Shown: in pieces, positions 1-56,540 of the stretch
Position numbering within the stretch: position 1 is the first letter of the stretch
Layout: every line of letters begins with the position of its first letter
NCBI GenBank assembly: GCA_026770705.1
Contig: JANJGN010000323.1
Span: forward strand, 434,001-498,000
Length of the DNA stretch: 64,000 nt
From: Isurus oxyrinchus
Lineage: Eukaryota
Direction of reading: 5' to 3'
Position numbers and translations under genes: made by a program
The notes under the pieces: generated by a model
Database searches by the model: none
What the model saw: the letters and a program-made list of their open reading frames with translations, nothing else
What the model was told of the DNA's origin: nothing

Positions 1-395
1 CCTCACTTAATAAACAGTTCCAATCTTTACCCAGAGAGAGGGGAGAATGTGGAACTCGCTCCCACAGGGAGTGGTTGAGGTGAACAGTATCAATGTACTT
101 AAGGGGCAGGAGGCTCGGTAACCAGAGGGACACAGATTGACGAACCGGAGGGGGAGATGAGGAGAATTTGTTTTGACAGAGCGAGTTGTTGTGATCTGGA
201 AGGTGCTGCCTGAAAGGGCGGTGGAAGCAGATTCAATAGGAACTTTCAAAAGGGAAATTGGATAAATACTTAAAGGAGGAAGATGGTGGCAAATTGGAAT
301 GGTGGTTATTGGATCTGATTGGATAGAACATTGAAAGACCTGGCACAGGCACAATGGACTGAATGGCCTCCTCCTGTGCTGTATCATTCTCCGTT
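1..395 (+). mobile_element. CR1-type LINE 3'-end fragments
   Basis: Reads FTQREGRMWNSLPQGVVE and ends with GAATGGCCTCCTCCTGTGCTGTAT, like the other CR1 3' ends in the window. Confidence 0.6.
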
Positions 396-1306: not shown

Positions 1307-4234
1307 GTTCCACAGTGATGGTTATGAATCCCTCCACTGCTCCATGTTCATTCTCTGCCACACAATGATGTCTCCAGTGTCCCTGGATGTAATGTGAGGA
1401 ATCACCAACCACAGCTCATTGTTGGAAGTTGTTCTGTTCATTGGGACATTAAGATGTCAGGGCAGGAATCAAGAAGCCCGTTCACAGGATTACCAACAGA
1501 AAGTGAACAACAATTTATACTTAATGGGAAGAGAGTGCTGATTGGTTGACAAGTGGTCTCTGATAGGTGGAGGTGTTGCCATGGAGAATGGTGTGTGCGA
1601 GATGTAAAGTTTAGACAGCTTGTCTCTTCATTCAGCAATAATCAAATAAAGATCAATTAACTTCTATCGACTTTGAAGCACTTAGAGAGGCCTTAGAATG
1701 TGGATACTGAGAATGGGCTGCACTGTCAGAGGGTCAGTGCTGAGGGAGTGCTGATGTAGCATGAAAGGTGTATGTAATTACCTTGCACAGTTAGTACGAG
1801 GGTCCGCTCCGATGAAACAGATGGATATCTCACTCTGCAGCTGAGAGTGTGTCCGTGGTGTTTGAGTGATGGGATCAGGGTCAGAACAGAAGTATAGGTC
1901 AGAGTGACACCATGCTGAGTTACAGTGTATGAGACTGATCCAGGGACGTCAGTGGGAGTGTCCCAGGTTAAGACAGGTGCTGCTGTTCCATTGCACGTTG
2001 TGTTGAAGGTGCAGCTTACATCCATACGCTTTCCTGCAATAATTTCAGCAGGGAATATCATGGGTTTATCTGTGAAATCTAACAGACAGAGAATGGATCC
2101 TTTTAGAGAAATATAACATGAAGCATCAGTTCAAATAGAAACCACAGTCCCACAAGAGAAAGCACTTTTACAAGGATGATATCAGAACTGAGAGGTTACA
2201 ATGATCAGGAAAGATTTTCTTGCTCTTTGGCAGTAGTGTTTCTGTCTCTCAGCTTAATACACGTTCACTCCGAGACATGTGAATTGAGAACACTGGATGA
2301 GAGAAGAGGCTCAGACCAGAGATTGGAGTTAAAAGCAGAATACTGCGGATGCTGGAAATCTGAAACAAAAACAAAAATTGCTGGAAAGACTCAGCAGGTC
2401 TGACAGTATCAGTGGAGAGGAAGACAGGGTTAACGTTTCGAGTCCGTATGACTCTTCATCAGACCAGAGGTTTGAGTTCACTGGCTTCTAATTTCCTCAG
2501 TGATCTGGGTGATTTATCACCTTGTGGTTTGTTGGATCTTGCTGTGCACAAACTGCCTGCTGTGTTTTACATCTGTGACTACAATTCAGGAATAATTTCA
2601 TTGGCTGTGAAGGGATTTGGATCCTCCTGAGGTGGTAAATTGCGCTGCAGAAATGCACATCTTTCTTTTATCGATACGTCAGACTTTTAAACAGGACAGG
2701 AGAGATTGATGGGAATGGATAACCTGATAATACAGTTAATGCTTTTCATCATTGATATTAAAGTGAGTATTAGAGGTTGCTTTAGGACTGAACTGGAAGC
2801 TATCACCAGGTTATTGAGAATCAGACAGTGTGTTATAATAAGCTGTGTTTTGTGTTAATATGTAAACGTCACAGTTAGTGTTATTTCCCATTGAGTGTTG
2901 AATGTGAATTGTTGAGTAATTATAACACAGCACTTACCAGAAACGTGAAGCCGGGTTACAGGGTAATATAAATGTCAATATTTAACTCTGGATGGTTTGT
3001 CAATCCACTAGACTTGATATCCACTCCCTCCATCACTGGGGCACAGTGGCTGCAGTGTGGACTAACTACAGGACACACAAGGAACACCCCAAGGTTTCAC
3101 AATGGATGGAAGAGAATCCTGGACACAGGAGTGGACAAGTTCATTCTACATTGGCTCATGGTCCTCAGGACTCTGTTTACTGAAGCCAGTCTTCCACCCA
3201 ACACAGTGTCTACAAGATACACAGGGAAACTGTGTAAACATCTCATCTCTCTACACCGACTGGTTTGGCTTCGGTTTAACTTTCAGTTATTTTACTTCCT
3301 TATTGTGGTTGCTATGGTGAAACTGTGCAGGAAGTGTGAGGGCTGGACTCTCTGTCTATTCTGACTGCAGCTGTGATGTGGTCGTGGTGATTCTCAGTAA
3401 AATGAAACCCTCTGATCTCCTCCATCGCCGAGGTTTAGGGAGTGAATTCCAGAGCTCAGGCCCCAGGCAGCTGAAGGCACGGCCGCCACTATTGGAGTGA
3501 TGGGAATCGGGGGATGGTCAAGAGGCCGGAATTGGAGTAACACAGAGATCTGGGAAGTTGTTTGGTTGAGTTGCAGGACGTTACAGAGATAAAGAGATAA
3601 GAATGATCTTTTACAAAAACTGTTAAACATAAATCTGTCCATACTGACGATGATATTACCTTGGAGAAGTGACAGGAGGAAGTAAGATTTCCCGATCATC
3701 GTCCACTCCCAGATATTCCATCCACTTCTCACTCTCAAGCTGTGAAAGAGAAAGGAGTTAATGAGACCTCACCTCTTGTCCGACAGCTCTCGAGAGATCA
3801 GAACTGCTTTTAGACAATGTCTTCACAGAATAGTTTGATTCTCTGTGGGATGATAGGTGCTCTGCAGAGAGTTACAAGGCTTTAAGAAAGAAAATCAATG
3901 AAGGATTTGCATTTCTATCGCACCTTTCACCACCTCAGGATGTCCCAAAGCTCATGTCTCTGCACTTCCCTCATCCCTTGAGCTAGAAAGATGTTCTGTA
4001 CAACAGACTTGAGCCTCACACCCAGATCTCAATAATCAGTAGAAATCTTTCAAAGGCATCAATCATTGGAATCTGTCTTTATAAAGTCACAACATCAACA
4101 AAGGACGGTGTTGGTCGTGGAAGTGAATTCCAATCGTTCCGTTACTTACCCAGGACCTGTCCGACTGCTCGCCTGGGGAGGAACTGCCCACACGCTCTGC
4201 TTGGGCTGAATGACCTCTTCCTGTGCTGCCCCCT
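1307..4234 (-). pseudogene. Siglec-like gene A remnant: exon 1 4150-4234, leader 3660-3699, V remnant 2938-2968, C2 1782-2078, D3 remnant 1307-1458
   Basis: The V exon is deleted except for its last 30 nt or so and the donor. D3 is 5'-truncated with a 1-nt deletion. The C2 exon is still open. Confidence 0.8.
1782..2078 (-). CDS. Open C2-set exon within gene A remnant
   Basis: 297 nt, near-identical to 22568-22864. Confidence 0.6.
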
Positions 4235-6644
4235 CTGTGTATTTAGTGAGAAAGGGTTGATGTGTCTCTGTGAGACAAAATGAGGAAGTTGGATCAAAGT
4301 GACAGAGCAGCTCATGTTTTGAGATGTTGGTGAACTTTGTGTCCTGACCCTGTGGTGATATTTCTGCTCACAGGTGGACAGTCATTGACCAGGAGTTTCT
4401 CCTGTGGGTCAGTGGGTTTCACAGCCAAATTCAGGGGGTCAGAATGTTGTGGGATTCAAGACCCGATTCAGGGGACGTCTGCCCCACAGAGTAGACTGAA
4501 ACTCCCCAGTGTCAGTACTGAGCAAGTGCTGCACTGTCGGATGGTCATTACTGAGCGAGTGTTGCACTATTGTAAGGTCAGTACTGAGGGAGATCTCCAC
4601 TGTTTGAGGGTCAGTACTGACGAGTGCTGCACTGTCAGAGGGACATTAATCAGGGAGTGCTGCAATGTTGGAGGATCAGTACTGAGGGAGTGCTGCACTG
4701 TTGGAGGGTCAGTATTAAGGTGCTGATTTACAAGACAGGACAATGGATTAGGAGCCCTCAGAACTCCCCCCATTATCACCGTCATGAATCACTAATCAGC
4801 CTAACATTCCTGTTTGCTCTTCAACACAGCTGATTAGCTAATCTGATTCAATCTGATTGGTGCACTTTGTATGTTCATTGTCTAAGGAATCTCTTTGGAT
4901 CCTCATTGTCTAAGGAATCTCTTTGGATCCTCATGTCTAAGGAATCTTTTTGGATCCTCATTGTCTAAGGAATCTCTTTGGATCCTCATTGTCTAAGGGA
5001 TTATTTCTGATCCAAACCCCATATTGTTGTATTGTTGATTCCGATGCAGCATTGTAGACTGACTTGTCCCCAAGCTCAGCACTGACCCTACTCCAGCAGA
5101 CACTGTGAAACACACTAACAAAGTGCCTCTAGCCTGAGCTCTGCATGTGTCGAGAGAAAGACAAATATGCAAACTGAATATTGACACCTTTACACACAGA
5201 CAGCTTTACCTTCCTTCTCTCTTTCAGTTATCTTGCTCTCTTCTTGAAGTTTCTAGCAAGGTGAGAATGGACAGGAAGTGTGACACTGAACAGCCTGTCT
5301 ATTCTAGGAGCTGCTGTGTTGTCTTCATGGGAAATTCTGATTAAAATCAGCAAAAGACACAAATTTCATTCCTTTGCTATCGGAGTCCAAGCATCAGGAT
5401 AGACTTCATCCCCCAGTATTTATCACTGTTTCTCAATTCAACACCTCACGCCTTCCGCCACTCGCTGACCTGCACTGGCTCCCAGTCCAGCAGAGCCTCG
5501 AGTTTAAGATTCTCATCCTCAATTTCCATTCCCTCCATTCCTCTTCTCCAATCACTTTCTCCTCCAACCATGCAAACCTCAAAGTCCTCTGCTATCCTCC
5601 AATTCTGCTGTCAGACAGGGAGTCAGTGTATATCAGTGAGCACAGGGGTGATGGGTGAATGGGACTTGGTGTGAGTTTGTACACTGGCTCACTGCTGAAT
5701 CTGTTCCCAATCAGAGCTCAATAAGAATTATGTTTTACAAAGATGATTAGCCATAAATCTGTCCGAGCTGACAATGATATTACCTTGGAGAAGTGACAGG
5801 AGGAAGTAAGATTTCCTGATCATTGTCCACTCCCAGGTATTTCATTGGTTCTCAAGCTGTGAAAGAGAAAGGAGTTAATGAGACCTCACCTCTTGTCTGA
5901 CACCTCTCGAGAGATCAGAACTGCTTTTAGACAATGTCTTCACAGACTAATTTCATTCTCTGTGGGATGATATGTGCTCTGCAGAGAGTTACAAGGCTTT
6001 AAGAAAGTAAAACAATGAAGGACTTGCATTTCTATATCGCCTTTCACCTGCTCAGGACATCCCAAAGCTCATGTCCCTGCTCTTCCCTCATCCCTTGAGC
6101 TAGAAAAATGTTCTGTACAACAGACTTGAGCCTCACACCCAGATCTCAATAATCAGTAGAAATCTTTCAAAGGCATCAGTTATTGGAATCTGTCTTTATA
6201 AAGTCACAACATCAACAAAGGATGGTGTTGGTCGTGGAAGTGAATTCCAATCGTTCCCTTACTTACCCAGGACCTGTCCGACTGCTCGCCTGGGGAGGAA
6301 CTGCCCACACGCTCTGCTTGGCCTGAATGACCTCTTCCTGTGCTGCTCCCTATTTGTGTTTAATTAGAAAGGGCTGATGTGTCACTGTGAGTAAAATCAG
6401 GAATTGGGGAACAATTGTGAAAACCCTTTCACTGAAACGTAGGGCCTTAGTGTTGTGTTGTAAACAAACTGTTAACCCTTTGTGTCCTGACTCTGTGACG
6501 TGATTCCTGTGTAAAGCTGAGCAGTTGGTGAGCGAGTTGCAATTCACTGCTCACTCCAGGTGTTGAGGTGGATCTTCTGAAGGAGCAGATGTTGCTCAGC
6601 GCTCCTTAAAAATGTGAGATACTGAACATTGTGTAAGAGGACGA

Positions 6645-6955: not shown

Positions 6956-7589
6956 ACATGGAAAAAGGAAAGAGATTGCATTCACTAACAAAAGAAAGGT
7001 TTTCATTTATATAGCACATTTCACATCCTCAGTAGGTCACAAGGTATCTTATGGTCCGGGTCAACACTGCCTGTTACAGGACTGAGTTGTCAAACAGGGA
7101 GTGTAGGATGAGATGTAAAATACTGATTGAACATCAAAGCTCTTCAGGGGCTGTGAAGGGTTTGGGATTGTAAAAGGTGCTATAGAAATGCAAGTTCTTT
7201 CTATAAGGGGAGAAGTTTGAAGAAAACATTTTCGAAAACAACCAATTAAACCTTCACACTTACTTTCTCACACACTTGAAGATGAAGAATCCACTCAGTC
7301 CAACACTCAAACAGATTCCAGCTCCAAGCAATCCTGCTTTCCATTCATTGGAATCTCGCCCTGTAAAATCAGCCAATGAATGACTCCGGTACAGTTTGAG
7401 AATGGTTCCCTATGTACATGTAGTAATTCTGAACTTGTGAAGTGATATTGTCTATGCATGAAAGGTCTATACAAATAACATTTATCTATGTAATATTTAT
7501 TGATAATATCCATGTACATGCAGGTTTCTATAAGGAGGATTCACATATAACAGAGGTGCCAAGCTGCTGAGGTGACACACAGGACTACA

Positions 7590-14039: not shown

Positions 14040-14620
14040 GATTGGATCACGTCCGATCTGTATCTTAACCCCATCCACCCGCCTCGGTTCTGTAACCCTT
14101 AACCCCCGACCCAACAACAATCTCCCAATCTCAGTTTTGAAATTTACAATTGACCCCTCCCAGTCTCGACAGCTTTTTCTGGGGGAGAGAGTTCCAGATT
14201 TCCACCCCCGCTTTGTGTGAAGAAGTGCTTCCTGACATCACCCCCTGAACGGCCTGGCTCCAATGTTAATGTTCTGCTCCCTTGTTCTGAACCCTCCTCA
14301 CCTCACCCTCACCCCCCAGCCCCACCCCCACCCTCACCCCCACCATCCGGGGAAATAGTTTCTCTCTATCGACCCCATCGAATCCTTTAATCATCTTAAA
14401 CCCCTCGATTAGATCACCCCTTAATCTTCGAGACTTCAGGGAACACAAGCCTGGTCTGTGCAACCTGTCCTCGGGATTTAACCCTTTCAGCCCCGGGATC
14501 GTTCTGGTGACTCTGCACAGCACCCCCTCTAAGGACAATATATCCTCCCTGAGGTGCGGTGTTCTGGACTGAACCCAGTGACTCCAGATTGGGTGTGAGG
14601 GGACCTTCATAAAACTGTGC
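14040..14620 (-). mobile_element. CR1 LINE 3' fragment
   Basis: RRLRGDLIEGFKMIKGFD motif of the CR1 ORF2 C-terminus. Confidence 0.8.
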
Positions 14621-17526: not shown

Positions 17527-20500
17527 CTACAGAGAAATGGAAACAGAAGACATCCTCACATCATTTACTGGCACTGATAGGGTTAAATTATTGTGCAGCC
17601 TCATTAGTGTCAGTCGTGTCTCAGTGGGTTTAACCCTTTTTTCACTCTCTTTCTCTGTCTCTCTTTCTCTTTCTCTCTCTTGTCACCCGCCCGAGAGGGC
17701 AGACGGGGGACTCGGTTTAGTGTCTAATATTGGACTAATCTCCAGGCGAGGTTGGCTGGATGGATTATTGACAAGGTCCATTCACCCTGTAAAGAGTTTC
17801 TCTGGTTTGAAATACCCGATCAAACATCGAGTTCTGTGTCTAAACCTTGTGTTGAAAAGACACCTTTCCAGCTCTTCACCTGCCATTAGCTTGTTGAGTC
17901 TTCACATGCTCCGTCTGTCCGTGACCAACCCCTCTTAGCTCATCCTTTCCTTGTCGTACATCGAGCTGTTCATCCTGACGGGTTCCCTCCTTCCCAGTAA
18001 CACTCCAACTCCGACATCAAACTAACTCCCAACACATTGATGAATTGTATGGATTCCAGCGTCAGTTGGTTCTGTCTGAGGCTGTTTCTCTGATCAGGGA
18101 CCGAGCTGTTCTGAACGGACATTGTGTTCAGCAGTTCTTATTGCAGATCAGGCTGTTCAACCAATGCTGCTGTTCACTGAGGTGACTCCGATTCTACATT
18201 CACACATTAATGATCTCATGTCCAGCAGCAAACATCTGAATGAAGCCAGGTTCAAGAAAAATCCCAGCTGCTTGATCCGACAGTTATCTGTTCAGGCATG
18301 GCCCCTTGTTCCAAATAACAAACATTATTTAAAAATAGTCATCACATGAGCCTGGTTAACAAGGAAATGAAACCATGAACAATTTGCAGTAAAGTGAAAC
18401 ATACAAGACTAATCTATTTATATTGAGCTGATGATATAGAATTTTACACGAGGCATGTTGCTGATTTCAAACATCATCTGAATTACGGCAGTTCTGACAG
18501 TGCAGCACTCCCTCAGTACTGACCCTCTGACAGTGCAGCACTCCCTCAGTACTGACACTCTGACAGTGCAGCACGCCCTCAGTACTGACCCTCTGACAGT
18601 GCAGCACTTCCTCAGTACTGACCCTTTGACAGTGCAGCACTCCCCCAGTACTGACCCACTGACAGTGCAGCACTCCCCCAGTACTGACCCACTGACAGTG
18701 CAGCACTCCCTTGGTACTGAATCCAGAGATACAAGGAAGAGACTGAAGAGCTGACGATTCAGCTGAATTAAAAAACAGAGGCAGTTACAGAATCACAACA
18801 AGTTTACAGAGCAGAAGGAGGCTATTCAGCCCCTCGAGCCTGTTGCACAGGAGAGGCCATTCAGCCCCCTCGAGCCTGTTACACAGGAACAGGAAGAGGC
18901 AATTCAACCACATTCTTGATACCAAAGGGGTTACCAGTTTGCTTACGGTGGAAGACAAAGAGTTGGTTTCTCAAATTCACACAAACCAACTCACATTTTG
19001 ACTCACAGAGACACATTCACCCTTTCTAATTAAATACACAGAGGGAGGAGCACAGGAAGAGGTCATTCAGCCCAAGCAGAGCGTGTGGGCAGTTCCTCCC
19101 CAGGCGAGCAGTCGGACAGGTCCTGGGTAAGTAACGGAACGATTGGAATTCACTTCCACCACCAACACCGTCCTTTGTTGATGTTGTGACTTTATAAAGA
19201 CAGATTCCAATGATTGATGCCTTTGAAAGATTTCTACTGATTATTGAGATCTGGGTGTGAGGCTCAAGTCTGTTGTACAGAACATCTTTCTTGCTCAAGT
19301 GATGAGGAAAATGGGATGCCCTGAGCTGGTGAAAGGTGCTATAGAAATGCAAGCCCTTCATTGTTTTTCTTTCTTAAAGCCTTGTAACTCTCTGCAGAAC
19401 ACCTATCATCCCACAGAGAATCAAATTAGTCTGTGAAGTCATTGTCTAAAAGGAGTTCTGATCTCTTGAGATCTGTTGGTCAAGACGTGAGGTCTTATTA
19501 ACTCCTTTCTCTTTCTGAGTTTGAGAGTGAGAAGTGGATGGAATATCTGGGAGTGGACAATGATCGGGAAATCTTACTTCCTCCTGACACTTCTCCAAAG
19601 TAATATCATCATCAGATTTAATGTTAATAATCTCTGTAAAGGATCATTCTTATTGAGCTGTGATTGGGAACCGATTCAGCAGTGAGCCAGTGTACAAACT
19701 CATACCAAGTCCCATTCACCCATCACCCCTGTGCTCACTGATATACACTGATTCTCTGTCTGACAGCAGAATTGGAAGTGATCAGAGATCTCAGAGAGTT
19801 GTAGGGACTGGAGGACGTTACAAATTTAAGCAGAATTGTAGCAGCGAGAGCAGAATCTTAAAATTCAGGTGCTATCGGTTGTTGGTCAGTGAGCGATGGG
19901 GAGTGATGGGTTGAGTAGAGAAGCAAAGATAAAAACTGGGGGATGAAGTCTATCCTGCTGCGAGGTCTCCGATAGCAATGGCCTGAAATTTGTGTCCTTT
20001 GCTGCCTTTATTCAAAATTTCCCATGAAGACAGCACAGCAGCTCCTAGAATAGACAGGCTGTTCAGTGTCACACTTCCTGTCCATTCACACCATGCTAGA
20101 TACTTCAATAAGGGAGCAAGATAACTGATAGAGAGAAGGAAGGTAAAGCTGTCTGTGTGTAAAACTGTCAAATATTCTGAGTTATCATGAGTGTCTCTGA
20201 TCTGCTGCAGAGTTTAAATTTCACAGAATCTGAGCACTTTGCAGCTCAGAGAGAGACCATTGACTCACTGCCTGAAAGGCCGGTGGAAGCAGATTCAACA
20301 GGAACTTTCAGAAGGGGAACTGGATAAATACTTGAAGGGAAATTTGCAGGGATGTGTGAAAGGTGCTGGAGAGGAATTGGGAAAGAGCCAGCACATGCAC
20401 GATGGGTCAAATGAGCTCCTCCTGTGTTGTATCATTCAACAATCAGACAATTTAAGACCCTTGTCAGCAAATCTTCAGAATCCTGCTGAATCACAGATGT

Positions 20501-21798: not shown

Positions 21799-22167
21799 TT
21801 GGACTGTCACAAGAGTGGAAAGGTGACACTCCACGAGAGGTGACAGCGCAGGAAGATTCGTGTGTACAGATTCCATGTCATTACAGTTATCCATCACATT
21901 TGGAAAGCCGACCATGAGTCGGAGTCTGGTTTAATAACGAGAATCAGATTCCTGGATCTCCCATTGCCTTTCACTCCAAGGACCACAGTCACGAGTTACC
22001 ACGGTTCCACCATCGGACCCGGCTGTCTGGAGACCTGAAAGATGGCGACTGTTCCCTGATTATAAACAACATCAGACGGGAAGATGCAGGACCTTATTTT
22101 TTCAGGATAGAATTTGACAGCAGAAATAGATACAGCTACTATCCTGTAACCCAGCTTCACATTTCTG
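21799..22167 (+). pseudogene. Gene B V-set exon with nonsense codon
   Basis: 369 nt; reads ..HLESRP*VGVWFNNE..YFFRIEFDSRNRYSY. Confidence 0.85.
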
Positions 22168-26590: not shown

Positions 26591-26809
26591 TGTGTCACCT
26601 CAGCAGCTTGGCACCTCTGTTATATGTGAATCCTCCTTATAGAAACCTGCATGTACATGGATATTATCAATAAATATTACATAGCTATATGTTATTTGTA
26701 TAGACCTTTCATGCATAGACAATATCACTTCACAAGTTCAGAATTACTACATGTACATAGGGAACCATTCTCAAACTGTACCGGAGTCATTCATTGGCTG
26801 ATTTTACAG

Positions 26810-26906
26810 GGCGAGATTCCAATGAATGGAAAGCAGGATTGCTTGGAGCTGGAATCTGTTTGAGTGTTGGACTGAGTGGATTCTTCATCTTCAAGTGTGT
26901 GAGAAA
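26810..26906 (+). CDS. Type-B transmembrane exon (RDSNEWKAGLLGAGICLSVGLSGFFIFKCVRK)
   Basis: 97 nt, phase 1-2, homologous to 50225-50321. Confidence 0.75.
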
Positions 26907-27614
26907 GTAAGTGTGAAGCTTTAATTGGTTGTTTTTGAACATGTTTTCTTCAACGTTCTCTCCTTATAGAAAGAACTTGCATTTCTATAGCAACTTTTCC
27001 AACCCAAAACCCTTCACAGCCCCTGAAGAGCTTTGATGTTCACTCATTGTTTAACATCTCATCCAACATTCACTGTTTCACAACTCAGTCCTGTAACTGA
27101 CAGTGTTGACCCGGACCATAAAATACCTTGTGACTTCCTGAGGTTGTGAAAGCTGCTATACAAATGAAAACCTTCCTTTTGTTAGTGAATGCAATCTCTT
27201 TCCATTTTGCATGTTTCATTCACTCTCTCTTATCTCCACTAATGCTGGCCTTCTCATTCTCTCTCTCTCTCATTCACTCTCTCTCCAATCTCCACTAATG
27301 CTCTCCTTCTCATTCTCTCTCTCATCCTCTTACACGTTGTTCAGTATCTCACATTTTTAAGGAGTGCTGAGCAACATCTGCTCCTTCAGAAGATCCACCT
27401 CAACACCTGGAGTGAGCAGTGAAATGAAACTTGCTCAACGACTGTTCAGCTTTACACAGGAATCACGTCACAGAGTCAGGACACAAAGGGTTAACAGTTT
27501 GCTTACAACACAACACTAAGGCCCTACATTTCAATGAAAGGGTTTTCACAATTGTTCCCCAATTCCTGATTTGACTCACAGTGACACATCAACCCTTTCT
27601 CATTAAATACACAG

Positions 27615-27699
27615 AGGGAGCAGCACAGGAAGAGGTCATTCACCCCAAGCAGAGCGTGTGGGCAGTTCCTCCCCAGGCGAGCAGTCGGACAGGTCCTGG
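27615..27699 (+). CDS. Type-B cytoplasmic exon 1 (GSSTGRGHSPQAERVGSSSPGEQSDRSW)
   Basis: ACACAG acceptor, GTAAGT donor, phase 2-0, open. Bridges the TM exon to the phase-0 tail exons. Confidence 0.6.
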
Positions 27700-28210
27700 G
27701 TAAGTAACGGAACGATTGGAATTCACTTCCACCACCAACACCGTCCTTTGTTGATGTTGTGACTTTATAAAGACAGATTCCAATGACTGATGCCTTTGAA
27801 AGATTTCTACTGATTATTGAGATCTGGGTGTGAGGCTCAAGTCTGTTGTACAGAACATCTTCCTGGTTAAATTATGCAGACAGGTTACACACAGTCTACG
27901 ATTATATTCCCTCAGGTCTAGAAGATTAAGGAGTGATCTAACTGAGGGATTCAAACTGATTAAACACTCGATAGGGTCGACAGAGAGAAGCTATTCCCTC
28001 GAGTGGGGGTGGTTGGTGGGGGTCGGGTGGAGTCCAGAACAAGGGGGCCGGAACTTCAGATTGGAGCCAGGCCGTTCAGGGGTGATGTCAGGAAGCACTT
28101 CTTCACACAAAGGGGAGTGGAAATCTGGAACTCTCTCCCCAATAATCAAACCCAACACCGAATACACATCATGTTGATTGTCACTCTGTCCATTTCCATC
28201 TCTATTACAG

Positions 28211-28315
28211 AAGAGAGGCGAGGGGAAAGCAGGAATCAAATCGAACCATCGTGTTGATGAATATCAAGGTCCTGTTTATGAAAACTGTGAGCGTGGTTGG
28301 GCTTTGAGGAATCAG
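28211..28315 (+). CDS. Type-B cytoplasmic exon 2 (KRGEGKAGIKSNHRVDEYQGPVYENCERGWALRNQ)
   Basis: TTACAG acceptor, CAG|GTGAGT donor, phase 0-0. Confidence 0.55.
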
Positions 28316-28450
28316 GTGAGTCACACACCACAGGATCCCCAGCCTCTCAGCTGCTCCAGTAGCCTGGTTATTGATATGGCTGCTCCAGTCCTGTATCTGC
28401 ACTGTTTTATACAGTCACTCCCAAACCCAACCAAACTCACACCCAACACC

Positions 28451-28635
28451 ATTCAGAATCAATAATCAAACCCCGATCAGAATCAATAATCAAACCCCGT
28501 TCAGAATCAATAATCAAACCCCGTTCAGAATCAATTATCAAACCCCGTTCAGAATCAATAATCAAACCCTGTTCAGTATCAATAATCAAACCCCGTTCAG
28601 AATCAATAATCAAACCCTGTTCAGTATCAATAATT
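28451..28635. repeat. 24-bp tandem repeat (TTCAGAATCAATAATCAAACCCCG)
   Basis: About 7-8 direct units between the two tail exons. Confidence 0.9.
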
Positions 28636-28732
28636 AATGTATGTATTGTGGGTGGAATTTTCGATTTGGATCAATAATACTAAACACTGATCACTCTGAT
28701 TGTCACTCTGATCATTTCTGTTTCTATTACAG

Positions 28733-28849
28733 AAGAAAGATGAGAAGGATCTGGAAATGAAATCTAACCGCGGAGTCAATCCTGATACAGATGATGATCT
28801 TTACGCAAACTGTGATTTTGCCAAGGATTCTGTTTATGGGAATTTATAA
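28733..28849 (+). CDS. Type-B terminal exon (KKDEKDLEMKSNRGVNPDTDDDLYANCDFAKDSVYGNL*)
   Basis: TTACAG acceptor, TAA stop, two Tyr motifs after an acidic stretch. Confidence 0.65.
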   Translation, partial: KKDEKDLEMKSNRGVNPDTDDDLYANCDFAKDSVYGNL

Positions 28850-30189
28850 ACTGAGCAAGAATGAGACACACACAGTGTGGGGAGAATACAGAACGGGAGA
28901 ATCATTCAAAACTCCAATTTACCTTCCTAATATCCACAGGAACTCACTCCCAGGAAATAGATTTAAACCTCTCGTTACAATCTGATGGAATTTCTTCGGA
29001 ATGATCTATCCAGGATGATTGTCTGTGGGTTTCAATTCGAACATCCTCCTTCAGAATTGTCCCTCCCTGTTGGAAACATCCTTCTCTCCATTCTGATTGT
29101 AAATGTCTTTAGATATCGTTCGATGATGTACCAGGACAGAACGGACAAATTCAATCCCGTGTCCATGATTATGAGTTAATTTTCATTCTGTTATTCACCT
29201 TCCTGTCAGTCAGTGTTTACAGAATATTCATCAGCCAGTGTAGACTTCAGGAAATGCAGGATCGGTGGATAATTGGAGCAGAGGAGATAGGCAAAATTTA
29301 CTCAGCATTTTGTAATCAAATGTATTTTTAGATATATATTTGGATTTTACACTTCATCGTTAAACAGCAAAACTAACAGCAATCTGGGAAACAGGGAAAC
29401 AATTTGTTTGGAGATTTGAGAAATTCTCTGCAGCTCAGAGGAGAACAGATGTGCTACAGTGCCACCACTGGTGGGAGGACATCATTTCAGCGTGACATGT
29501 TTACATTGATGTTGCCAGTGAACATAGGAAATTATGATGTGAAAAATTGGTTGCAGGTTTACCTTCTTCAGAAGTTCATGGATGGATGAGACAGCTTTGA
29601 TAACAGAATGAGATATAGCTGCAATAAACCTCAATTTTAGTCTTTCACACTTGGAGAGTACAATTAGCATCCATTCTGAAGGCTGAGTGGATGGGTGGAC
29701 TGTGCGATGTGTTTCAGATCACAGAGACCAACATCCTTGATCCTGGTTCTGCTCTATGTTTGATGACATTCTTGGATAAAAGATTGGGAAAATAAATAAT
29801 CCTCCTGCATTGATCTGTAACTGGTCTCTCCATCTGTCAATGTCCTGAGGAGAGAATTGGGTTTGAGGTCCAAAATCAGATGCATACTTTGACTGCCCAT
29901 TGAATAGGAACAGGAGGAGGCCATTCAGCCCCCTCGAACCTGCTACACAGGAACAAGAGAGCACCTGAAATAAAAACAGAAAATGCTGGAGAAACTGAGT
30001 AGGTCTGGCAGCATCTGAGGAGAGATAAACAGAATTAACATTTCGAGTCCGTATGACCCTTCTTCAGAGTCTATATGCAAAAACTCTGTTTCTCTCTCCA
30101 CAGCTGCTGCCAGACCTGCTGAGTTAAGGCAACATTTTTCATTTTTATTGAAGATTTACAACATCTGCAGTATTTATTTTTAATGAGAG

Positions 30190-30810
30190 GAGGACATTCA
30201 GCCCCGCGACCCTGTTACACAGGAACAGGAGGAGGCCATTCAGCCCCCTCGAGCCTGTTACACAGGAACAGGAGGAGGCCATTCAGCCCCATGAGCCTGT
30301 TATACAGGAAAAGGAGGAGGCCTTTCAGCCCCTCAAGCCTGTTACACAGGAACAGGAGGAAGCCCATTCAGCACCTCGAGCCTGTTACACAGCAACAGGA
30401 GGAGGCCCATTCAGACCTTCAAGCCTCTAACACCAGAACGGAATGAGGTCATTTCAGCCCCATGAGCTTGATGAACAGGAACAGGAGGAGGTCCATTAAG
30501 CCCCTCAAGTCAGTTACATAGGAACAGGAGAAGTCTCATTCAGCCACACGAGCATCTTATATAAGAACATGAGGGGGCCCAAACAGACCCTCAAGCCTGT
30601 TACACAAGAAGCGGAGGAGGAGGTTCATTCAGTCCCTCGAGGCAGTTTTACAGGAACAGGAGGAGGCCCATTCAGCCACACAAGCCTCTTACACAGGAAC
30701 AGGAGGAGGTCCATTCAGCCCCTCAAGCCTGTTACACAGGAACACGAGGAGGCCCGTTCAACCACCTCGAGCTTAAAGCATGTGAACAGTCGATGGCCCT
30801 TCAGCCACAT
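30190..30810. repeat. Tandem repeat of about 43 bp (ACAGGAACAGGAGGAGGCCATTCAGCCCCTCGAGCCTGTTAC); short version at about 18805-18910
   Basis: Degenerate tandem units just upstream of exon-1 modules. Confidence 0.85.
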
Positions 30811-30938
30811 TCTTGGCACACAAAGGGTTAACAGTTTTCTAACTGTGCGAGGCAAAGAGTTGCTTTCTAACTTGGGACTAACCACTTCCTCATTTTGTCT
30901 CACAGTGACACATCCACCCTTTCTATTTAAACACACAG

Positions 30939-31023
30939 AGGGAGCAGCACAGGAAGAGGTCATTCAGCCCAAGCAGAGCGTGTGGGCAGTTCCTCCCCAG
31001 GCGAGCAGTCGGCCAGGTCCTGG
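30939..31023 (+). other. Gene C putative non-coding exon 1 (85-nt module)
   Basis: Ends at CCTGG|GTAAGT. The same module lies about 0.43-0.45 kb upstream of all five leader exons. The 5' boundary is uncertain if this is a first exon. Confidence 0.6.
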
Positions 31024-31473
31024 GTAAGTAACGGAACGATTGGAATTCACTTCCACGACCAACACCATCCTTTATTGATGTTGTGACTTTATAAAGACAG
31101 ATTCCAATGATTGATGCCTTTGAAAGATTTCTACTGATCATTGAGATCAGGGTGTGAGGCTCAGTTCTGTTGTACAGAATATCTTTCTAGCTCAAAGGAT
31201 GAGGGAATATCAGGGGTATGAGCTTTGGGACATCCTGAGGTGGTGAAAGGTGCTATAGAAATGCAAGTCCTTCATTGATTTATTTTTTTAAAGCTTTTTC
31301 ACTCTCTGCAGAGCACCTATCATCCCACAGAGAACCAAATTAGTCTGTGAAGACATTGTCTAAAAGCAGTTCTGATCTCTCGAGAGCTGTCGGACAAGAG
31401 GTGAGGTCTCAATAACTCCTTTCTCTTTCAGAGTTTAAGAGTCAGAAGCTAAAGGAATATCTGGGAGTGGACA

Positions 31474-31513
31474 ATGATCGGGAAATCTTACTTCCTCCTG
31501 TCACTTCTCCAAG
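31474..31513 (+). CDS. Siglec/MAG-like gene C, signal peptide exon (MIGKSYFLLSLLQ)
   Basis: ATG at 31474, donor CAAG|GTAATA in phase 1. Joined to the V exon it reads ...LLQVGLS/QEW, a plausible cleavable leader. Acceptor TTTCAG ends at 31431. Confidence 0.8.
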
Positions 31514-32519
31514 GTAATATCATCGTCAGCTTGGACAGACTTATGGCTAATAGTCTTTGTAAAAGAACATTCTTACTGAGCTCTGATAGGGAACTGATTC
31601 AGCAGTGAGCCAGTGTACAAACTCACACCAAGTCCCATTCACCCATCACCCCTGTGCTCACTGATATACACTGACTCCCTGTCTGACAGCAGAACTGCAG
31701 GACAGCAGAGACCTCAAAGGGTTTCAGGGCTGGAGGAGGTGACAGTGATAGGGATTAGAGAGGGAGGATGGAGGGATAAGGAATCAATGAAGAGATTTTG
31801 AAAATTGAGTCATTGCTGGACTGGGAGCCAGCGTAGGTCAGCGAGTGACAGGGGAGCAATCGGCTGAATAGAGAAGCAGGGATAAAAACTGGGGGATGAA
31901 GTCTATCCTGATGCAAGCACTCCGATATCAATGCCCTGAAATTTTTCTCTCTTGCTGATTTTCATCAGAACTTCCCATGAAGACAACACAGAAGCTCTTA
32001 GATTAGACAGGCTGTTCAGCGTCACACTTCCTGTCCCTTCTCACCATGCTAGATACTTCAATAAGGGAGCAAGATAACTGATAGAGAGAAGGGAGGCAAA
32101 GCTGTCTGTGTGTAAAACTGTCAAATATTCCGAGTTATCATGATTGTTTCTGATCTGCTGCAGAGTTTATATTTCATTGAAACTTATCACTTTGCAGTTC
32201 AGAGAGAGACCATTGACTCACTGCCTGAAAGGCCGGTGGAAGCAGATTCAACAGGAACTTTCAGAAGGGGAACTGGATAAATACTTGAAGGGGACATTTT
32301 GCAGGGCTGTGGGGGAGAGAGCAGAGGTGAGAGTGGGACGAATTGGACAGATCTTTCAAAGGCGCAGCACAGGCTCGATGGGCCAAATGGCTTCCTTCAG
32401 TTCTGGATCATTCTACAATCCGATAAATTAAATCTCTTATCAGTAACTCTTCAGGCTCCTGCTGCAGGAATGGATCTTTCAGAAGGGCAGGGAACAAGCG
32501 GTTTCTCATATCATGTTCA

Positions 32520-50224: not shown

Positions 50225-50321
50225 GTAGAGACTCCAGTAAATGGACAGTAGGATTGTTCACGGCTGGGATCATGTTGAGTGTTTTCCTGGCTGGAATCTT
50301 CATCTTCATCTGTGTGAGAAA
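50225..50321 (+). CDS. Gene C transmembrane exon (GRDSSKWTVGLFTAGIMLSVFLAGIFIFICVRK)
   Basis: TTACAG acceptor, AA|GTAAGT donor, 97 nt, phase 1-2. Uncharged hydrophobic span followed by basic stop-transfer residues. Confidence 0.85.
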
Positions 50322-56455: not shown

Positions 56456-56540
56456 AGGGAGCAGCACAGGAAGAGGTCATTCAGCCCAAGCAGAGCGTGT
56501 GGGCAGATCCTCCCCAGGCGAGCAGTCGGACAGGTCCTGG
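56456..56540 (+). other. Gene D putative non-coding exon 1 (85-nt module)
   Basis: Same module and GTAAGT donor as 30939-31023. Confidence 0.6.

Follow-up and report, generated by a model that had tools for sequence, protein, structure and literature searches.

One 85-nt exon serves two roles in a family of shark Siglec-like receptor genes: it is spliced as the first cytoplasmic exon of one kind of receptor tail and as a 5' exon ahead of the signal-peptide exon. This double use is real at the family level. We consider it probable that one exon fills both roles, that its 5' copies likely come from the tail exon and have likely been matched to it by repeated exchange, and that genes fused head to tail are derived from this arrangement.

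Judged from exon homology, the window, the 64-kb stretch of Isurus oxyrinchus DNA analyzed here, is a section of a huge array of shark Siglec-like immune-receptor genes. Its exons match the Pfam V-set, Ig_CD22 and C2/I-set families. The best PDB matches of the V-set domain are Siglec-5 (E 2e-16), sialoadhesin and CD33, and the nearest named proteins are 'Siglec-like' models of the white shark and the basking shark, whose V domain is 77-91% alike. The F-strand arginine is present, as the YFFR of the array aligns with the YFFR of Siglec-5, and its motif is found in 35 of 44 open V exons (54 V exons examined). The gene plan further includes C2-type domains, a single membrane segment and tyrosine motifs in the tail. 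The ectodomains are very variable, one gene having up to 11 C2 exons in tandem and another having seven V exons in tandem (G000:C52:1703000-1717000, 1871000-1887000). An intronic segment that follows the signal-peptide exon recurs in every module (window:3387-3253, minus strand; related segment at window:31880-32140); it contains what we take to be ETS-, RUNX- and IRF-like words and is a possible enhancer.

The window genes have 3' ends of two kinds. In type A, a 97-nt membrane exon (50225-50321) is followed by an 82-nt exon of phase 2-0, and in type B, the membrane exon (26810-26906) is followed by the 85-nt exon and then by two exons with tyrosine motifs. Type-A genes often carry two to three repeats of the tail-exon pair, which would make alternative tails available (G000:C52:1155000-1165000, 1509000-1518000; C52:1085000-1091000). 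The features of the tails are as follows:

21799..22167, plus strand: V-set exon of the gene with the 27615 copy, in-frame stop at 21915-21917
26810..26906, plus strand: type-B transmembrane exon, 97 nt, phase 1-2, junction 26906>27615 in X1 and X5
27615..27699, plus strand: 85-nt exon, tail-type copy in a broken gene, phase 2-0, 28 codons, first cytoplasmic exon of type B
27558..27864, plus strand: shared tract, from about -57 to +165 (intron), tail and 5' copies 97% alike from -40 on
27865..28140, plus strand: repeat fragment that borders the shared tract on its 3' side in tail copies, presumably a CR1-like LINE; matches 14182-14483, in 29 of 30 loci
28211..28315, plus strand: second cytoplasmic exon with YEN motif, phase 0-0, RNA-contig junctions
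28733..28849, plus strand: last coding exon with LYAN and SVYGNL, the latter taken by us to be ITIM-like, RNA-contig junctions
51045..51126, plus strand: first cytoplasmic exon of type A, 82 nt, phase 2-0, in the slot of the 85-nt exon and of different sequence

The preliminary description had reported six copies of the 85-nt exon in the window, and all six are present, each of the others two mismatches from the 27615 copy. The remaining copies and the features around them are as follows:

3660..3739, minus strand: signal-peptide exon of the tandem module
4150..4234, minus strand: 85-nt exon, 5' copy of the second, tandem module
5784..5856, minus strand: signal-peptide exon downstream of the fusion copy, 5' part 33 nt long, with 4 codons before an in-frame stop
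6267..6351, minus strand: 85-nt exon, fusion-type copy, tail-type sequence upstream and 5'-type downstream, CAG lost
7264..7360, minus strand: type-B transmembrane exon ahead of the fusion copy
19042..19126, plus strand: 85-nt exon, 5' copy without ETS motif, at the head of the gene ending at 28849
30884..30894, plus strand: ETS/PU.1-like motif ACTTCCTCATT (binding putative), specific to 5' copies
30906..30938, plus strand: 33-nt extension that arises when splicing from a preceding signal-peptide exon uses an alternative acceptor further upstream; seen as joints in X2 and X5 and in basking-shark model P0141
30939..31023, plus strand: 85-nt exon, 5' copy, spliced to the signal-peptide exon, junction 31023>31432 (GT..AG) in X6 and X7
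31432..31513, plus strand: signal-peptide exon, 42 nt of 5' UTR and 13 codons, phase 1 end
56456..56540, plus strand: 85-nt exon, 5' copy

Five of the copies had been placed about 0.43-0.45 kb ahead of a leader; they stand 433-450 nt before the signal-peptide ATG, and no such ATG lies within 800 nt of the 27615 copy. As described, the 27615 copy follows a type-B membrane exon that ends in phase 2, has CAG and GT ends, is open and has phase 2-0, and skipping it puts the next tail exon out of frame. The gene that contains it is broken, with a stop in the V exon and a C2 exon that lacks a donor, and the statements on use made below thus hold for the class and not for the 27615 copy. Openness of the exon in all three frames is unremarkable (17% under random synonymous codons), and its likeness to the type-A first tail exon is weak, as 22 of 500 shuffles score as well. 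The PU.1-like ACTTCCTCATT is found, as claimed, at about -55 in three leader-proximal copies (4150, 30939 and 56456) and is absent from the 19042 copy; the two TM-proximal copies, 6267 and 27615, carry AATTCCTGATT at that upstream position. The 6267 copy indeed has both a type-B membrane exon upstream and a signal-peptide exon downstream, and its CAG acceptor is replaced by AAT. The piece shared among the copies extends beyond the exon itself to about 290 bp.

Bases 7-33 of the exon (window:27621-27647) match a common shark repeat in 25 of 27 letters, with 93 short hits in 1 Mb. A satellite of similar unit lies upstream of several 5' copies (window:30187-30809, 18800-18900), and in two copies (G000:C52:1012623, 1764783) the 5' part is replaced by satellite, with the acceptor and the ETS motif gone. 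The exon may thus be partly repeat-derived, or its likeness to the repeat may be due to chance.

The exon is abundant in the genome. An 18-mer from the exon end has 634 exact matches and its reversed control has none, which shows that the copies are not due to chance. Exact matches number 462 for the ETS-bearing upstream motif, 328 for a signal-peptide motif and 91 for a type-B membrane motif; such exact-pattern counts are lower bounds, and the assembly may include allelic duplicates. A repeat-junction pattern for counting tail copies was too specific, with three matches. Contexts were surveyed in a contiguous 1 Mb chosen regardless of content, which contains 55 exon copies: 44 5' copies, 4 in type-B tails, 3 fusion copies, which lie between an upstream membrane exon and a downstream signal-peptide exon, and 4 others. 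An 85-nt exon lies upstream of 47 of the 48 signal-peptide exons, the sole exception being one at which satellite is joined directly to the intron. The exon follows all 7 type-B and none of the 16 type-A membrane exons, and type-A genes therefore have it only at the head. For 8 of the 44 5' copies, another signal-peptide exon lies within 1.7 kb upstream.

Is the exon spliced in both positions? Junctions were mapped in the assembled contigs of 7 of 21 runs, presumed to be RNA, over 26750-28900 (X1, X2, X5 and X18) and 30790-31640 (X2, X5, X6 and X7). The contigs are family-level, are not assignable to single copies and show neither starts nor strand. In the tail region, X1 and X5, which come from two studies, join the membrane exon to the 85-nt exon by GT..AG, and X1 has GT..AG joints that link the 85-nt exon with either of the two tail exons behind it, the second and the last. 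Among the loose ends listed, those of X2 fit the splice from the 85-nt exon to the second tail exon, and X2 also contains an out-of-frame joint between membrane exon and second tail exon that skips the 85-nt exon. None of these joints occurs in the DNA-like X18 over 26750-28900, and the base private to the 27615 copy is absent from all four runs on this region. The depth of X2, in which the exon stands far above the membrane exon, was set aside, since depth in contigs is no basis for ranking parts. At 27363, a candidate for a short terminal exon had no junction in the four runs and was rejected.

At the head of the genes, the 85-nt exon is joined to the signal-peptide exon in X6 and X7, with variant forms in X2, and loose ends of X2 and X6, among those listed, fit the splice from the signal-peptide exon to V. 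X2 and X5 also join a signal-peptide exon to the 85-nt exon, both at the CAG acceptor and at the acceptor 33 nt upstream, and the basking-shark models P0138 and P0141 hold both junctions. These joints are explained by tandem modules, in which a signal-peptide exon precedes the 5' copy; back-splicing is another possible source. An 89-nt candidate exon with good AG/GT ends (31311-31399) showed no junction in the four runs and intron-like cover and is not a regular exon. The preliminary description had allowed that the module might never be spliced or might serve in one role only. At the family level, the GT..AG junctions in RNA contigs remove the first possibility and the occurrence of both tail and 5' junctions removes the second.

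The 5' copies differ from the tail copies upstream of the exon. An ETS core is present in 40 of 44 5' copies versus 1 of 30 tail copies and, on these counts of the motif, is a clear class marker of the 5' copies. We infer that the 5' copy would act as a first exon with its own promoter. In X6 and X7, contig cover begins at the exon and the intron behind it is covered, among the loose ends listed, which gives a weak hint of a transcription start at the exon. Only a weak TAATTAAA-type element was found in place of a TATA box before the exon, and no TATA box is claimed. The part of the signal-peptide exon that precedes the ATG is 32-42 nt long and often contains an in-frame stop, and the 5' use is therefore mostly non-coding. 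In the white-shark models P0044, P0123, P0124, P0126, P0128 and P0129, an exon variant provides an ATG in frame with the signal peptide and adds 28 N-terminal residues; the ATG-creating variant (exon base 44 G>A) occurs here in 3 of 49 tail and 1 of 44 5' copies.

Alternatively, the 5' copy could be an internal UTR exon that is reached from upstream starts or by read-through of the previous gene or module, with the ETS motif being an enhancer or incidental. The acceptors of the 5' copies are largely intact, CAG being kept in 39 of 44 and used after an upstream signal-peptide exon, and five basking-shark models (P0001, P0038, P0039, P0138 and P0141) join tail or signal exons to the exon. However, a signal-peptide exon within 1.7 kb upstream is limited to the 8 copies counted above, no other common upstream exon is seen, the ETS core is class-specific and the cover in X6 and X7 weakly points to starts at the exon. 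We therefore regard an internal UTR exon as improbable and prefer a putative first exon.

The tail use of the exon is old. Of 120 homologous proteins, 20 have the tail-frame peptide immediately behind their membrane segment; they belong to 11 shark genera, Heptranchias and Pristiophorus among them, and tail use thus predates the split of the two main shark groups, which took place about 250 million years ago. The 5' use is seen in RNA or models only in lamniforms; its age may be deep as well. Searches for the other reading frames of the exon returned basking-shark models only, and a HMMER search with the frame-0 peptide found a single low-complexity frog protein, which was discarded as spurious. 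In 20 of the 44 5' copies, an older, diverged homology to the tail intron reaches up to about -185 and scores above every shuffle, which favors an origin in which the tail exon and its flanks were copied to the head of the gene. Two origins had been offered at the outset. Reuse of a tail exon as a 5' exon fits better, given the frame kept in 11 genera and the tail-intron homology; head-to-tail fusion is real, as the 6267 class attests, but as an origin it fails, being a derived by-product.

In the opposite direction of origin, the exon would have begun as the first exon of the family and entered the type-B tail through an ancient fusion, head to tail, in the shark ancestor, with its conservation reflecting selection on a regulatory element. 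Such a capture might account for the ratio of 5' to tail copies of about 11 to 1 (44 versus 4) and for the absence of the tail peptide from all 32 ray and skate proteins, and head-to-tail fusions do occur in the array. Yet in length and phases the exon is like the usual first exon of a tail (that of type A has 82 nt and phase 2-0 and also follows a 97-nt membrane exon), its tail frame is kept across the 11 genera, and present fusions lose tyrosine exons rather than create a tail. The capture scenario consequently seems to us highly implausible.

Tail and 5' copies are alike within a sharply bounded tract that is more alike than its flanks and includes non-coding sequence. Identity between the classes is 0.92 at -40..-1, 0.97 in the exon, 0.97 at intron +1..160 and about 0.5 outside, in a comparison that uses 33 tail copies mostly picked by likeness to the shared tract and thus biased upward. 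Among the 5' copies, identity is 0.96 in the tract versus 0.58-0.63 in the upstream and 0.82-0.86 in the downstream flanks. No fixed difference separates 49 tail copies from 44 5' copies. The classes have 25 variants in common versus 9.6 expected (transversions, 9 versus 3.8), on the assumption that sites are equally mutable and copies independent. The tail copy L194 is a mosaic, in which the upstream sequence changes over to the ETS segment of the 5' type. The class label changes 6-7 times in a tree of 77 copies, and 0% of bootstrap trees have a single change.

The likeness could also stem from one recent lamniform duplication from tail to 5' position and expansion of the array, with both uses real, no long-running exchange and an independent duplicate in the sevengill. 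It is consistent with an AU test on the 77-copy tree, which does not reject tail copies as one clade (p 0.166), with the restriction of 5' use in RNA and models to lamniforms and with the tail genes, which are all young duplicates with flanks 94-98% alike. A single recent event is, however, at odds with the contrast between the tract and its own flanks among 5' copies, with the upstream tail-intron homology, which is visibly more diverged than the core, and with the shared variants, the L194 mosaic and the interleaved tree. We thus judge it unlikely, and repeated exchange remains our preferred explanation. A cross-species check bears on the same question; it is a two-frame compatibility test on predicted proteins of three species, with one model outside the lamniforms. 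The upstream copy of the Heptranchias (sevengill) model P0085 is one base change from the Heptranchias tail, three from the tail of this genome and 4-12 from 12 others. The 5' frames of the basking shark and of this genome are 0-3 changes from the closest lamniform tails and 4-5 from that of Heptranchias. These distances hint that tail/5' matching recurs in the sevengill lineage, although the sevengill upstream copy might be the decayed tail of a neighbor.

Within this genome, lesions that disable coding are not significantly rarer in the tail class (1 of 30 tail versus 6 of 44 5' copies, p 0.14 one-sided). Synonymous and non-synonymous counts in the tail frame, a dN/dS check, are 6/8 distinct variants for 30 tail copies chosen by the downstream exon, 3/9 for 33 copies chosen by the tract itself and 12/22 for the 44 5' copies (0.23 expected), too few variants to show any selection. 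At exon base 81 (window:27695), a C>A change from Ser to Tyr is carried by 27 of 49 tail versus 1 of 44 5' copies; it is a new tail tyrosine that is spreading in the coding class.

The 6267 copy represents a class of fused genes, with at least 12 loci at which the exon is preceded by tail-type sequence and followed by signal-peptide sequence. In 11 of these 12, the signal exon is of the 33-nt type found in the 5' module behind an intact type-B tail, and the spacing of 432 nt is the same where measured. The undeleted parental order exists at C52:1246611-1255327, and the three fusion copies of the 1-Mb set form one clade. By its arrangement, the 6267 class is best explained by deletions that run from a tail copy to the 5' copy following it. 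Two of the 12 loci lack CAG and three have a stop in the exon; the other seven predict a tail of 28 plus 4 residues without tyrosine motifs, and transcripts of this short-tail kind are possibly subject to nonsense-mediated decay. In the basking shark, the predicted models P0038 and P0039 run from a tail copy to a second copy and then to signal and V exons.

In tandem modules (window:5856-3660, minus strand; G000:C52:1050403, 1253171, 1808444), a signal exon is followed by the 85-nt exon, read in its third frame, and by a signal exon of the 40-nt type, and the whole series is open in frame. This frame predicts a double signal peptide, a form that also occurs in the basking-shark P0138 and P0141. 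The copies in such modules might be true hybrid exons, with both uses at one locus. The module behind fusion-class copies goes from the signal exon to C1 with no whole V exon (window:3660-1780, minus strand; G000:C52:1050926-1052558).

Thus, we propose that the tail exon would have been duplicated with its flanks into the head position, where the duplicate would have gained, or kept, an ETS site at -55 and become a first exon whose transcription would start at the former acceptor or close to it. Because the tail and the head of neighboring genes share the tract, gene conversion that mixes the two classes and unequal crossover are both possible. If a tail copy crossed over with the 5' copy that comes next, the exons with tyrosine motifs would be lost and the two genes joined head to tail, and a fused gene of the 6267 class would then encode a predicted receptor tail without tyrosine motifs. 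It is likely that the shared piece lets neighboring genes trade sequence and fuse in this manner. A more far-reaching reading, which we advance tentatively and consider somewhat doubtful, is that a copy of the tail exon has served as first exon throughout the array since before the main shark lineages split and has been continually rewritten from the tail in each lineage. The 290-bp tract would then be a head-to-tail recombination cassette that yields fused genes, tyrosine-less receptors and stacked signal-peptide modules, and the evolution of the promoter would be tied to that of the tail protein.

Siglec pairs are already known to undergo conversion and fusion, and exons that can be first or internal have also been described. 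The present findings suggest a concrete sequence cause for the instability of an immune array of several hundred genes, namely that each head matches the tail of a neighbor; they also predict a receptor class without tyrosine motifs, offer an explanation for the odd fused RefSeq models of the basking shark and warn that short reads are not assignable to genes in the array. In searches of open-access text, we found no account of an exchange between a tail exon and a 5' exon across a receptor family, nor of this exon. The whale-shark genome paper, in its excerpted text, mentions Siglecs once, without gene structure.

The shark genes resemble CD33-related Siglecs, sialoadhesin and MAG in having a signal peptide, a V-set domain with the F-strand arginine, C2-type domains, a membrane exon and a tail with tyrosine motifs. 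This likeness is one of sequence only, and unlike the CD33-related Siglecs, the shark array is far larger, with at least 328 signal-peptide and at least 91 type-B membrane exons.

The double use of the exon is reminiscent of hybrid first-internal exons. According to excerpts of their description, one such exon is used as an internal or a first exon, with starts centered around the 3' splice site, and an internal exon often becomes usable as a first exon by gaining transcription-factor sites in the intron upstream of it (PMC11797052). Likewise, internal use of the shark exon is seen, and its ETS motif would act as a factor site in the upstream intron. However, hybrid exons, as those excerpts present them, are one locus with two isoforms, whereas the roles of the shark exon are split between duplicates at opposite ends of paralogs and its use as a first exon is putative.

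The exchange itself is best compared with primate paired Siglecs. In the excerpted text of two studies, SIGLEC11/SIGLEC16 and SIGLEC5/SIGLEC14 evolve in concert by repeated conversion that includes upstream sequence, and a deletion between look-alike parts joins neighbors in the SIGLEC14-SIGLEC5 fusion allele (PMC5701461, PMC6288428). Like these pairs, as far as those excerpts describe them, the shark Siglec-family genes appear to be kept alike within each lineage, with upstream sequence converted and deletions fusing neighbors. The primate pairs, on the same excerpts, exchange equivalent parts of two genes, 5' with 5'. In contrast, in the proposed shark exchange, which would involve hundreds of copies, a tail exon that is coding would trade sequence with a non-coding exon from the opposite, 5' end of the gene.
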